Source of the DNA: a virus
Lineage: Duplodnaviria; Heunggongvirae; Uroviricota; Caudoviricetes
Reading direction: 5' to 3' (one strand)
DNA length: 26,417 nt
Virus record (IMG/VR): IMGVR_UViG_2703718784_000007
Part shown: piece after piece, positions 7,336-10,585 of the stretch
Position numbering within the stretch: the first letter of the stretch is position 1
Layout: each line of letters begins with the position of its first letter
The notes under the pieces: generated by a model
What the model was told of the DNA's origin: nothing
Databases searched by the model: none
The model's input: the letters and a program-made list of their open reading frames with translations, nothing else
Program-made: the position numbers and the translations under genes

Positions 7336-7466
7336 TTATTTCATCAGAAATTAATTATCACTCTGTTGTTATTCTGTACATCCCGGCAGGGTAAGTCTTG
7401 TTCCGTCGGATATGAAGATGAAATATTGTTGGAGGACAGTGGGTACCTGCTCCTGTAACCGAACGT

Positions 7467-7667
7467 TCATTTCTCGTTATTTGTCATGCTGGCCGGGCGC
7501 AGATGCGTTGCATCTGTTGCCAGCCTTCTCCTGCAGGCTTCAATAACCCACGCTGAAAAGTTACCGGACCCTTTATGCTCAAGGGCGATGTTGATCTGTT
7601 CAATCATGTGATTGGGGAAACGGATATTGCGGGTTGTGGTTCTGCGGGTCCGGTTTTTCGATGACAT
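7467..7667 (-). CDS. Ribbon-helix-helix (Arc/MetJ/CopG-like) DNA-binding protein, orphan
   Basis: Internal ATG at 7667 of minus ORF 7467-7727, with AAGGAAA RBS; N-terminal beta-strand motif RNIRFPNHMIEQI followed by two helices; the ORF-track GTG start at 7727 would overlap the HNH gene. Confidence 0.55.
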   Translation of the reverse strand: MSSKNRTRRTTTRNIRFPNHMIEQINIALEHKGSGNFSAWVIEACRRRLATDATHLRPASMTNNEK

Positions 7668-7708
7668 ATTTATTTCCTTTACTGATTGCCATATGACGGG
7701 GATTTTAC

Positions 7709-8074
7709 ATGGCTCAGCTTCGTACACTCCAGAGCAGAATCAAAACACTGAATACCCGACGGGTGAATATTCTGAAGGGTGAACAGCGTCGTGTCAGTGG
7801 CAGTGCACGTGTTTCCCTCAAGCGTCATATCTGGCTCAGGGACGCCGGGCAGTGCTGTCTCTGTGGTCGTGTGGTTGACCTCTGTGACAGTGAACTCGAT
7901 CACCGAATTGCACTTCAGTTCGGTGGTGGTAATGAGGAGACGAATCTCTGGACGCTCTGTACCGAATGCCATCGACAAAAGTCTGTTCGTGAAGCGGCGA
8001 GTGGTATGCCGGACCCGACACTGCCGGAGGTGTCCGGAGGTAGTGGCAGAGCGGACGACATCATCGGACTGTAA
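7709..8074 (+). CDS. HNH endonuclease (terminase-associated, HK97 gp74-like)
   Basis: Cys-pair zinc finger and HNH motif (CCLCG...DHRIALQFGG.N...NLWTLCTECHRQK); located immediately upstream of the cos region and terminase genes. Confidence 0.85.
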   Translation: MAQLRTLQSRIKTLNTRRVNILKGEQRRVSGSARVSLKRHIWLRDAGQCCLCGRVVDLCDSELDHRIALQFGGGNEETNLWTLCTECHRQKSVREAASGMPDPTLPEVSGGSGRADDIIGL

Positions 8075-8363
8075 CCCGACCCGGGGGGGTATCATCCGGC
8101 GTAAAAAACTATCGCTCCGGACACCGCGCCCCCTCTCACGCAGAGAAAAAATTCCCGTTTCAGGGCAGTTAACATGTTAACTGGCTGTCCGGGCATTTTT
8201 GCGGTTTTTATCTTTATTATTCAGTTTGTTGCGTGGAAAAAATGTTAACAGGCTTTTTCAGCAAATGTTAACCAGGCAGCAGTTAACATTTGCGGCATGA
8301 GACGCCGGGAAAAATGGGCTGAACCATACCCGGCTGAGTGCGTTCTGGACCCGGGAGGAGGCT
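8075..8363. other. cos / packaging-initiation region (candidate cosN-cosB) with multiple GTTAAC(A) motifs
   Basis: Non-coding gap between HNH and TerS; perfect palindrome gttaacatgttaac (8168-8181), further tgttaac motifs at 8243-8250, 8266-8272, 8282-8288 forming an inverted pair; G-rich tract near 8087-8100. Confidence 0.5.
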
Positions 8364-8927
8364 GTGCTGACAACGCAAAAACGAAAATTTGCGCTGGCGC
8401 TCATGTCCGGGAAAAACAAAACAGCGTCAGCCATTGCCGCCGGTTATTCGGCGAAGACAGCCAGGGTTAAAGGCTCGCAGCTGGCAAAAGATCCGGAGGT
8501 GCTTGCGTTTATAGCCCGTAAACAGTGCGAGACGGTGGAGGTGGATGAGGTTCCTGTTTACCGGCAGAAAAAATCAGAGCAGGAGGATAAACCCCGTCGC
8601 CGTGAGGCGGCTGCAATACCACAGCCGGACGAAACAAATCCGGAGATGCCACCGCCCGTGGTGATATCTCCTGGTATTGAGTATATGGAGGACGGTCTTC
8701 CCGATCCTGTGAAAGCGATGGGGCGTCTTCTGGTGGAGAACATTAATACCGACCCCAGGCTGGCGCTGGATGCGGCTTATAAGCTGGCGCAGTTCACGCA
8801 CCACAAAAAAGGGGATGCCGGTAAAAAATCGGCAAAAGGTGACGCGGCGAAAAAAGCGGCTAACCGTTTTGCGGTGCCACCACCACCCCGCCTGGTGGTG
8901 AATAATGATAATGAGGGCAACGGATGA
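8364..8927 (+). CDS. Terminase small subunit
   Basis: GTG start with GGAGGAGG RBS; N-terminal HTH-type motif (ASAIAAGYSAKTARVKGSQL); stop overlaps the TerL start. Confidence 0.8.
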   Translation: MLTTQKRKFALALMSGKNKTASAIAAGYSAKTARVKGSQLAKDPEVLAFIARKQCETVEVDEVPVYRQKKSEQEDKPRRREAAAIPQPDETNPEMPPPVVISPGIEYMEDGLPDPVKAMGRLLVENINTDPRLALDAAYKLAQFTHHKKGDAGKKSAKGDAAKKAANRFAVPPPPRLVVNNDNEGNG

Positions 8928-10585
8928 TACCAGTGTGGAGCACGGCCTGCCCGGACTGGGCAGAGCGTCTGAAAAAGGGGCTGTCGATTATTCCGTCTCC
9001 GATTTACCCGGAGCAGGCCGCACATGCCCTGGCGATTTTTAAACAACTGCGGATTGTGGATGCACCGGGCAGCCCGACGTTCGGGGAGTCCTGTGCAGCG
9101 TGGGTGTTTGACCTGGTGGCGGCCCTGTTTGGCTCCTACGATGCGCAGACCGGTGTACGCCATATAAAGGAAGTGTTCATTCTGATACCGAAAAAAAACA
9201 GCAAGTCCACGCTGGCCGCGGGGATCATGATGACGGCGCTGTTACTGAACTGGCGGCAGGCGGCGGGCTACACCATTCTGGCCCCGACCGTGGAGGTGGC
9301 GGCTAACGCCTTCAACCCTGCCAGGGATATGGTTCGACGGGACGATGATCTGGATGACCTCTGTCAGGTGCAGACACATATCCGGACCATCACCCATCGG
9401 GTGACGGACACCACCCTTAAGGTGGTGGCTGCCGATCCGAATACGGTGTCCGGTATCAAGTCCGTGGGGACGCTGATTGATGAACTGTGGTTATTTGGCA
9501 AGCAGTACAAAGCGGAGGACATGTTACGTGAAGCCATAGGCGGCCTTGCCTCCCGCCCGGAAGGGTTTGTGGTGTATACGACCACCCAGTCGAATGAGCC
9601 GCCAGCCGGAGTGTTCAGACAGAAACTGCAGTACGCCCGGGATGTCCGTGACGGCAAAATTCATGATCCGCACTTTCTGCCGGTGATATTTGAACACCCT
9701 CCTGAAATGGTGGAAAGCGGGGCTCACCTGCTGATGGAAAACCTCGCCATGGTCAATCCGAATCTCGGTTATTCGGTGGATGAGGCTTTTCTGTACCGGG
9801 AGTACCGTAAAGCCCGGGAGGCTGGTGAGGAAGCATTTCGTGGCTTCATGTCAAAACACGCCAATGTGGAAATCGGTCTTGCCCTGCGTTCTGACCGCTG
9901 GGCGGGCGCGGATTTCTGGGAGCAGCAGGGCAGGCGCGTCAGCCTGGACGATATCCTGCAGCGCGCTGATGTGGTGACGGTGGGGATTGACGGCGGGGGC
10001 CTGGATGATCTGCTGGGAATGTACGTGATTGGCCGTGACAGGGAAACCCGCGAATGGCTGGGCTGGGGCCATGCCTGGGCGCATGAAACCGCGGTGCTCA
10101 GACGGAAGAGTGAGGCATCCCGGTTTCAGGATTTTGTGGCCTGTGGAGACATGACGATTGTCCGTCGGGTCGGGGATGACACGGCGGAAGTGGCGGAGTA
10201 TGTGCGTCGTATCCATGAGGCTGAGTTACTGGATCATATCGGTATTGACCCGTCAGGTGTGGGGCAGATTCTGGATTCACTGGCGGAAGCCGGGATCCCC
10301 GACGGAATTGTTGTGGGGATAAGCCAGGGCTGGAAGCTGGGCGGGGCCATCAAAACCACCGAGCGCAAACTGGCTGAGGGAGTGCTGGTGCATGGTGGTC
10401 AGCCACTGATGGCCTGGTGCGTTGGCAATGCCCGGGTGGAGACTAAAGGTAACGCCATCCTTATTACCAAACAGGCCAGCGGACGGGGGAAAATTGACCC
10501 GCTGATGGCGCTGTTCAATGCGGTATCCCTGATGTCCCTGAATCCGGGGCCGAAAAAGAAAGAATATGCGGTTTTTTTCATATAA
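8924..10585 (+). CDS. Terminase large subunit (HK97-like)
   Basis: 553 aa; ATGA overlap with TerS; position and size; ATPase and nuclease regions not verified by search. Confidence 0.85.
   Translation: MIPVWSTACPDWAERLKKGLSIIPSPIYPEQAAHALAIFKQLRIVDAPGSPTFGESCAAWVFDLVAALFGSYDAQTGVRHIKEVFILIPKKNSKSTLAAGIMMTALLLNWRQAAGYTILAPTVEVAANAFNPARDMVRRDDDLDDLCQVQTHIRTITHRVTDTTLKVVAADPNTVSGIKSVGTLIDELWLFGKQYKAEDMLREAIGGLASRPEGFVVYTTTQSNEPPAGVFRQKLQYARDVRDGKIHDPHFLPVIFEHPPEMVESGAHLLMENLAMVNPNLGYSVDEAFLYREYRKAREAGEEAFRGFMSKHANVEIGLALRSDRWAGADFWEQQGRRVSLDDILQRADVVTVGIDGGGLDDLLGMYVIGRDRETREWLGWGHAWAHETAVLRRKSEASRFQDFVACGDMTIVRRVGDDTAEVAEYVRRIHEAELLDHIGIDPSGVGQILDSLAEAGIPDGIVVGISQGWKLGGAIKTTERKLAEGVLVHGGQPLMAWCVGNARVETKGNAILITKQASGRGKIDPLMALFNAVSLMSLNPGPKKKEYAVFFI

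Follow-up and report, generated by a model that had tools for sequence, protein, structure and literature searches.

A probable cos site with a cosB-like array of putative TerS-docking repeats in a BP-4795-type lambdoid prophage

The window analyzed here, a 26,417-nucleotide stretch of viral DNA (IMG/VR record IMGVR_UViG_2703718784_000007), is part of a Shiga-toxin-type lambdoid prophage of Escherichia coli, of the BP-4795/1717/Lys8385Vzw type (Marienburgvirus). We were interested in the 289-bp gap at positions 8075-8363, which separates the gene for an HNH endonuclease from terS, the gene for the small terminase (TerS). An HNH gene directly beside terS and terL is the arrangement of the HK97-type cos (cohesive-end) packaging module, and the flanking genes also include a portal and an HK97-fold capsid fused to its protease. 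As set out below, the gap is probably a cos site with a cosB-like TerS array, consisting of a run of seven Gs, a cleavage core, and a series of repeats on the terS side. The features of the locus are listed here, with offsets counted from the predicted top-strand nick.

7709..8074, plus strand: HNH endonuclease gene, 121 amino acids (aa); Pfam HNH, 28.7 bits against a cutoff of 21.4
8083..8089, plus strand: G7 run, putative conserved upstream cos element; distance to the top-strand nick, 45 nt
8119..8156, plus strand: predicted cleavage core, GGACACCGCGCCCCCT followed by CTCACGCAGAGAAAAAATTCCC with the cut between them; shared by Enterobacterales prophages, satellite islands, and Burkholderia phage Bcep176
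8125..8134, plus strand: predicted 10-nt 3' cohesive end CGCGCCCCCT; nicks at 8134/8135 (top) and 8124/8125 (bottom)
8166..8183, no strand: perfect 18-bp palindrome CAGTTAACATGTTAACTG, two head-to-head ATGTTAAC half-sites, +32 to +49
8184..8239, no strand: AT-rich spacer, 39% GC, with T-tracts at +62, +71, +79, and +91
8240..8249, plus strand: half-site S2, AAATGTTAAC, direct, +106 to +115
8261..8272, plus strand: half-site S3, GCAAATGTTAAC, left arm of an inverted pair, +127 to +138
8282..8293, minus strand: half-site S4, GTTAACATTTGC, right arm of the inverted pair, +148 to +159
8364..8927, plus strand: terS, 187 aa, Terminase_2/SF6-type small terminase (Pfam Terminase_2); GTG start behind GGGAGGAGG
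8924..10585, plus strand: terL, 553 aa, HK97-gp2-like large terminase (Pfam TerL_ATPase and TerL_nuclease)

The position of the cut was deduced from two related phages. Passages from the description of Lys8385Vzw, a Shiga toxin 1 (Stx1) phage, report a cos-type genome with 3' cohesive ends and the sequence CGCCCCCCCT at the genome end, as determined with PhageTerm (PMC7946995). The record of this phage (MT225100) ends in GGACACCGCCCCCCCT and begins with CTCACGCAGAGAAAAAATTCCC, and this junction aligns to window 8134/8135, with the start of the record, CTCACGCAGAG, falling at 8135. Over the stretch between the cut and the start of terS, 226 of 229 positions are identical (98.7%). The second phage, Bcep176 (NC_007497), is more distant, with a TerS 37% identical to that of the window. 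In its record, the 10-nt sequence CGCACGTTCC stands at each end, with CTCACGCGCAGAAAATTTTCCC after it. This terminal repeat sits immediately 5' of CTCACGCGCAGAAAA, at the position homologous to the window cut, and the ends of both phages put the cut immediately 5' of CTCACGC. Because the Lys8385Vzw junction and the Bcep176 terminal repeat align there, we place the cohesive end at 8125-8134, and the genome is most likely cut at this C-rich core. By homology, then, fixed ends with a 3' overhang of about 10 nt would lie in the gap between the HNH gene and terS, as the first-pass annotation supposed when it took the gap for a cos region holding the virion ends.

A further phage with mapped ends, phiE125, was set aside in favor of Bcep176, since it has an unrelated TerS and its ends lack the shared core. 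Separately, the cohesive-end sequence turned out to be polymorphic among otherwise near-identical Escherichia coli prophages. At the positions homologous to window 8125-8134 in loci L002-L156, we found CGCGCCCCCT, CGCCCCCCCT, CGCCCCCCGT, and CGCGCCCCGT, so that ends from different variants would anneal imperfectly with each other.

Between the cut and terS lie five half-sites, in both orientations, that together occupy +32 to +159. The first-pass annotation had pointed out a perfect 14-bp palindrome in the gap and three further TGTTAAC copies, two of them inverted around a 9-bp spacer. All of these were recovered. The palindrome, GTTAACATGTTAAC at 8168-8181, extends to the perfect 18 bp listed above, and AAATGTTAAC occurs at 8240-8249 (plus strand), 8263-8272 (plus strand), and 8282-8291 (minus strand). 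The last two copies belong to an inverted repeat at 8261-8293, with 12-nt arms (GCAAATGTTAAC and GTTAACATTTGC) and 9 nt between S3 and S4. Six of the seven TGTTAAC matches in the entire window fall inside 8168-8288. GTTAAC hexamers are present five times in 124 bp, compared to 0.025 expected from composition (Poisson P = 7.5e-11), and their clustering has a P of ~1.6e-8 after correction for position. We propose the palindrome at 8166-8183 as the primary TerS site, given the comparisons described below. The T-tracts in the spacer at 8184-8239 are phased and the pattern is retained in diverged variants; this segment is possibly bent DNA.

The proposed reader of the half-sites is TerS. It matches Pfam Terminase_2 (PF03592) over residues 2-57 with 35.7 bits, against a cutoff of 26.1, and no similarity to HK97 gp1 was found. 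In an AlphaFold model of the monomer, residues 1-56 form a four-helix domain with a predicted local distance difference test (pLDDT) score above 90, in which residues 33-41 are the predicted recognition helix. Residues 33 and 36, which differ between the classes of TerS described below, fall on this helix. The top Foldseek matches of the model are 4zc3, 2cmp, and 3zqq. The best of them structurally is 4zc3, the DNA-binding domain of SF6 TerS, with a template-modeling (TM) score of 0.84 (target-normalized) and a root-mean-square deviation of 1.6 Å. Sequence-only matches to the Protein Data Bank are weak (E 0.18-0.7). On the predicted structure, TerS is an SF6/SPP1-type small terminase with an N-terminal helix-turn-helix domain.

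A side observation concerns the region that follows this domain. In the TerS of Escherichia albertii (P0001), a 15-residue tandem duplication makes DKPRRREAAAIPQPD appear twice (alignment A1, columns 75-115). The duplication affects the linker that joins the DNA-binding domain to the C-terminal part, a segment that is poorly conserved and modeled with low confidence, and linker length seems from this alignment to be tolerant of change.

We then compared the repeats across relatives, using 139 loci (118 of them distinct) that contain both the core and a TerS gene. A scan of genome contigs with the single TerS protein returned nothing, and a rescan with a TerS alignment gave 18 loci. The conserved core is shared by Salmonella phage FSL SP-016 and by 17 prophages from other genera of the Enterobacterales, all with TerS proteins 40-49% identical to that of the window, and by about 60 distinct loci from a scan of viral contigs. 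Most relatives have a short architecture, in which a near-palindrome, GT[AT]AAC-ATG-TTAAC, stands at exactly +34 to +47, over the terS start codon. Their TerS proteins begin M-L-T, always encoded ATG TTA ACA; a count of these codons in loci picked by the motif itself is circular for codons 2-3, and the 139-locus set is unbiased. Bcep176 is of this short type as well, with a single site made of an inverted TGTTAA/TTAACA pair over its terS start codon. In the long architecture of the window lineage, the palindrome is found at the same offset from the cut even though terS starts 190 bp further on. It is therefore the distance to the cut that is conserved, not the association with a start codon. 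We take the short form to be the ancestral layout, with the near-palindrome over the terS start (GTAAAC-ATG-TTA-ACA). The window lineage would have gained about 190 bp with the extra half-sites, possibly through duplication of the terS 5' end.

Not every relative has a repeat of this kind. In three viral contigs (L094, L098, and L136), the cut core is the same and the palindrome is replaced by other repeats, either two direct copies of GTTAACC together with one [GA]TAAACC, accompanied by the helix KTAK[VI]KG, or TGTTAAG..GTTAAC. They represent additional classes of the system, by specificity or by architecture.

Natural variants of the long type connect the half-sites to the recognition helix. 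In the P0023 and P0032 lineages, the helix reads KSARCKG instead of KTARVKG, and all half-sites observed are TGTTTAT or TGTTTAC (TGTTTAY). S2 becomes AAATGTTTAT, S3 becomes ATGTTTAC, and S4 becomes GTAAACAT, with the arms changing in match so that the inverted pair is still inverted in both lineages. The palindrome of P0023, ATAAACATGTTTAT, is likewise still perfect, and the short P0032 contig ends before that position. The variants P0014 and P0033, which have the KTARVKG helix, retain TGTTAAC. The motifs also vary less than the surrounding DNA among 47 distinct long-type sequences, in which 21 of 54 motif columns are variable, compared to 88 of 132 elsewhere in the gap (P = 6e-4).

A second natural comparison is provided by satellite-like islands in the E. 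coli chromosome (loci L035, L036, and L159, with TerS P0061, and L033 and L034, with TerS P0053). They encode a TerS homologue and lack a terL, HNH, or portal gene. These islands keep the cut core (GGACACCGCCCCCCGT and CTCATTCGTAGAAAA on either side of the cut), which is then followed by repeats of their own, AAAAGTTACAC. Their TerS proteins are 46-53% identical to the window TerS in the DNA-binding domain and 58-70% identical in the C-terminal part. The short-type phages show the reverse, with 68-77% identity in the N-terminal part and 34-46% in the C-terminal part, and they keep sites of the GTTAAC type. Taken together, the two identity patterns indicate that repeat type tracks the DNA-binding domain of TerS and not its C-terminal part. 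Since the satellites keep the core and change the repeats while having no terL, HNH, or portal gene, the motifs appear tied to TerS rather than to TerL or HNH.

As for the islands themselves, one type contains int, an AAA_25 or D5_N primase, terS, and a gene for a 307-aa capsid-like protein, and lies beside yejM and the ccm operon. Another type has a Y1 transposase, AlpA, and TerS. Their sequences suggest that they are satellites of BP-4795/Stx-type phages.

Given the change of half-sites with the recognition helix, the pairing seen in the satellites, and the conserved position relative to the cut, the TGTTAAC motifs are very probably docking sites for TerS, the role for which the first-pass annotation had called them good candidates. 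In the mechanism that we envisage, TerS would form a ring whose helix-turn-helix domains face outward, as they do in SF6, and would bind the palindrome and the three distal half-sites, with the AT-rich spacer bending between them. The array would position TerL and HNH on the core, where the two strands would be nicked 10 nt apart. The terS side, to the right of the cut, would be marked for translocation and, if lambda and HK97 are a guide, packaged first.

Several points weigh against this interpretation. The binding of TerS to the motifs is something that we infer from sequence comparison, and the ends were mapped in relatives, with the Lys8385Vzw mapping itself being deduced by PhageTerm from reads. 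The association between helix and site has one exception, a TerS with ENSARSKG whose site is ATTAAC, and it rests on a handful of lineages that are not independent of each other. In the short architecture, some of the conservation of the near-palindrome may stem from the demands of translation initiation. The TerS model is of low confidence in its C-terminal half. Finally, no match to the consensus for integration host factor (IHF), WATCAANNNNTTR, was found in 8075-8363 with one mismatch or fewer allowed.

The possible origin of the array in a duplication raises the question of whether all of it is in use. The extra TGTTAAC copies might be decaying relics of a tandemly duplicated terS 5' end, which would leave the core and at most the first palindrome functional. 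Indeed, ATGTTAAC is the actual start of terS in about 60 relatives, the copy at 8265 is identical to terS 5' sequences at 14 of 26 positions beyond the motif (uncorrected P ~0.002), and copy number varies, with one extra copy in L032. However, relics would not be expected to shift together to TGTTTAY with their symmetry kept, as all copies do in P0023 and P0032, nor to be more conserved than their flanks, as the motif columns of the long type are. For the copies at 8174 and 8242, similarity outside the motif was not significant (the 8174 copy was tested from 8172, two bases out of register). A duplication origin is compatible with a present function in any case, and we consider it unlikely that the extra copies are mere remnants.

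We are similarly doubtful that the repeats are read by a factor other than TerS, such as HNH, TerL, a nucleoid protein of the host, or a regulator that controls late or terS expression. A regulator would suit the short architecture, where the site overlaps the ribosome-binding site and start codon of terS, and the gap does contain one weak promoter-like match, on the minus strand, that is made of the motifs themselves. On the other hand, a scan for promoters and terminators gave no excess over shuffled background, a search against Rfam at E<=1 found no RNA family in 7400-8800, and the IHF consensus is missing, as noted above. The long-architecture palindrome holds its distance from the cut while lying away from the start codon. 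More directly, motif type goes with the N-terminal domain of TerS and not with its C-terminal part, and satellites that encode TerS and have neither HNH nor TerL possess their own repeat type beside the shared core. We therefore continue to regard TerS as the probable reader of the repeats.

The motifs also delimit a 24-codon open reading frame, MLTGCPGIFAVFIFIIQFVAWKKC, at window 8174-8248 (plus strand), which starts at the ATG of the palindrome and stops at a TAA inside S2. The P0033 variant carries a reading frame of equal length at this position. As a gene it was rejected: in the P0023 variant it is shortened to 14 codons and the upstream GGAGGG, a ribosome-binding site, is lost. The reading frame is probably an incidental product of the T-rich spacer.

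On the other side of the core, the G run is present in related loci at a length of 4-13, with a mode of 7-8. Its distance to the top-strand nick is 45 nt in the window, 42 nt in HK97 (L003, 983-991), and 43 nt in Bcep176 (L005), a position shared by the three although their TerS families differ. That this G-rich tract is cosN, the cleavage site, as the first-pass annotation proposed for 8087-8100 (the G7 run actually occupies 8083-8089), is highly improbable, because, despite its strong conservation up to HK97 and Bcep176, the predicted cohesive end lies 35-45 nt downstream of it, the Lys8385Vzw and Bcep176 records end 43-45 nt downstream of it, the HK97 run is likewise 42 nt inside the right end, and a length varying from 4 to 13 G is awkward for a precise cohesive end. 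Its conservation instead marks the G7 run as a separate part of cos. It may have a cosQ-like role in termination or be an element for TerL or HNH.

One group of prophages has lost part of this upstream region. In the PPompW prophages (LC567822 and others; L160, 1046-2504), the Q/tRNA region is separated from cos by ISEc20, an element of the IS110 family. These records have neither the lysis genes nor the HNH gene, and they become similar to the window inside the G run, at the equivalent of 8086. These prophages retain the cut core, the TerS sites, and terS-terL. Since HNH and one half of the G run are missing, they offer natural mutants for testing both elements.

If the array works as proposed, the arrangement of the satellites might have a further consequence. 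We offer, as a tentative idea, that the cut core and the lineage-specific repeats form a modular packaging address, in which matched pairs of TerS DNA-binding domain and repeat would alone separate phages and satellites that share the TerL and HNH cutting core, or allow one to hijack another. Islands resembling phage-inducible chromosomal islands (PICIs), such as L159, would then redirect the TerL and HNH of a BP-4795/Stx-type helper to their own cos by means of a chimeric TerS, with a C-terminal part like that of the helper and a separate DNA-binding domain that reads AAAAGTTACAC. Two TerS-encoding E. coli PICIs showed no transfer upon induction of the resident prophages of their host strains (PMC6092414). 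If true, the idea would name helpers for the TerS-encoding E. coli PICIs, and it would amount to a cos-type counterpart of the TerS swapping of Staphylococcus aureus pathogenicity islands (SaPIs), acting on Shiga-toxin phages.

The cos region is widespread. At 90-99% identity it matches 94 phage records, almost all from Stx1a, Stx2a, or Stx2c phages or related lambdoid prophages (BP-4795, 2851, 1717, and YYZ-2008 are included). Of 5426 complete E. coli genomes, 1278 contain it, in up to 7 copies each, and copies in E. coli genomes and the wider clade number roughly 3000. E. coli S19-651 is 100% identical over the region. The neighboring genes support the HK97-type arrangement that the first-pass annotation had recognized in the HNH gene beside the terminase genes, and the capsid-protease is of HK97 fold. 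TerL is 23% identical to HK97 gp2 over 461 columns (BLASTP, E=2e-11) and is presumed to be both the cos nuclease and the motor. The BP-4795 counterpart of the HNH gene is annotated as an HNH endonuclease. Pairwise similarity of the window protein to HK97 gp74 is marginal (E=0.087), and we presume that it is an accessory nuclease for cos cleavage. Apart from these genes, a DUF3950 gene at window 7467-7727 (minus strand) shares 19 nt with the 5' end of the HNH gene; it is conserved in BP-4795, as ORF52, and in two related contigs, L027 and L028.

Part of this picture is not new. The cohesive sequence of a near-identical phage is already known, and the kind of element, a cos site with a cosB-like array, is ordinary. 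The searchable literature yielded no earlier account of TerS sites for these phages, and the available passages of the Lys8385Vzw paper report the cohesive sequence and say nothing on TerS sites (PMC7946995). The region is of moderate interest in that it is widespread among Stx phages, as the packaging signal of many Stx1, Stx2a, and Stx2c phages, and in that natural variants and satellites make its recognition code directly testable. The matched pairs TGTTAAC/KTARVKG, TGTTTAY/KSARCKG, and AAGTTACAC/satellite TerS are ready-made swap tests. The cut position and the specificity bases bear on cross-packaging of co-resident or defective prophages and satellites, and so on the spread of stx and other cargo. 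The cut position also bears on where termini are set in the annotation of these phage genomes.

How does this site compare with the packaging systems that have been studied in detail? The first-pass annotation had suggested a comparison with the cos region of HK97, which held for one part of the site and failed for another. As in HK97, the HNH gene is found at the right end beside terS-terL, TerL is homologous, a 10-nt C-rich 3' overhang is predicted in the gap between HNH and terS, and a G run precedes the cut by ~42-45 nt. A further likeness is the predicted TerS site on the terS side, within a few tens of bp downstream from the cut; the HK97 site is located at +15 to +29 (PMC11331095). In contrast, the HNH proteins are only marginally similar and the TerS proteins are unrelated, with a P27-type gp1 in HK97 and a Terminase_2 protein in the window. 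HK97 TerS has one 15-bp site with an A-tract, read as the DNA threads the ring, whereas the window has five symmetric half-sites over ~130 bp, which suits binding by helix-turn-helix domains. Single-site tunnel recognition is therefore the wrong mechanistic model for a TerS that is not of the HK97 gp1 type. Because its TerS is unrelated, the TerS/cosB part of the site is not a member of the HK97 kind.

The layout is like that of lambda cos, which runs cosQ-cosN-cosB with R3, I1, R2, and R1 (layout partly from the description in PMC6092414). Both sites combine an upstream element, a nicking site, and an array of known or, in the window, putative TerS sites in two orientations, separated by DNA that is bendable in lambda and may be so in the window, followed by terS. 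However, lambda has a 12-nt 5' overhang, the winged-helix TerS Nu1, an IHF site, and no HNH, and its sequence has no similarity to the window. The window site is not of the lambda kind, since its predicted overhang is 3', HNH is present, and both Nu1 and an IHF site are missing.

The closest relatives of the TerS domain are found in a third group. The G1P proteins of SPP1 and SF6 have an N-terminal DNA-binding domain that belongs to this family and shares its fold. G1P binds a set of repeated boxes on either side of the cleavage site, in DNA that is intrinsically bent. SF6 TerS is a ring-shaped 9-mer, and the window protein was modeled as a monomer only. SPP1 and SF6 differ from the window phage in infecting Gram-positive hosts, in packaging by the headful (pac) mode, and in having neither HNH nor cohesive ends, whereas a related type of TerS here would serve precise cos cutting with an HK97-like TerL. 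The locus is thus a clear case of a pac-type, SF6-like TerS domain working alongside an HK97-like TerL and HNH at a cos site, a combination to which neither the lambda nor the HK97 model of recognition applies directly. Overall, the site has a lambda-like layout, an HK97-like cutting chemistry, and a TerS domain of the SF6/SPP1 family.

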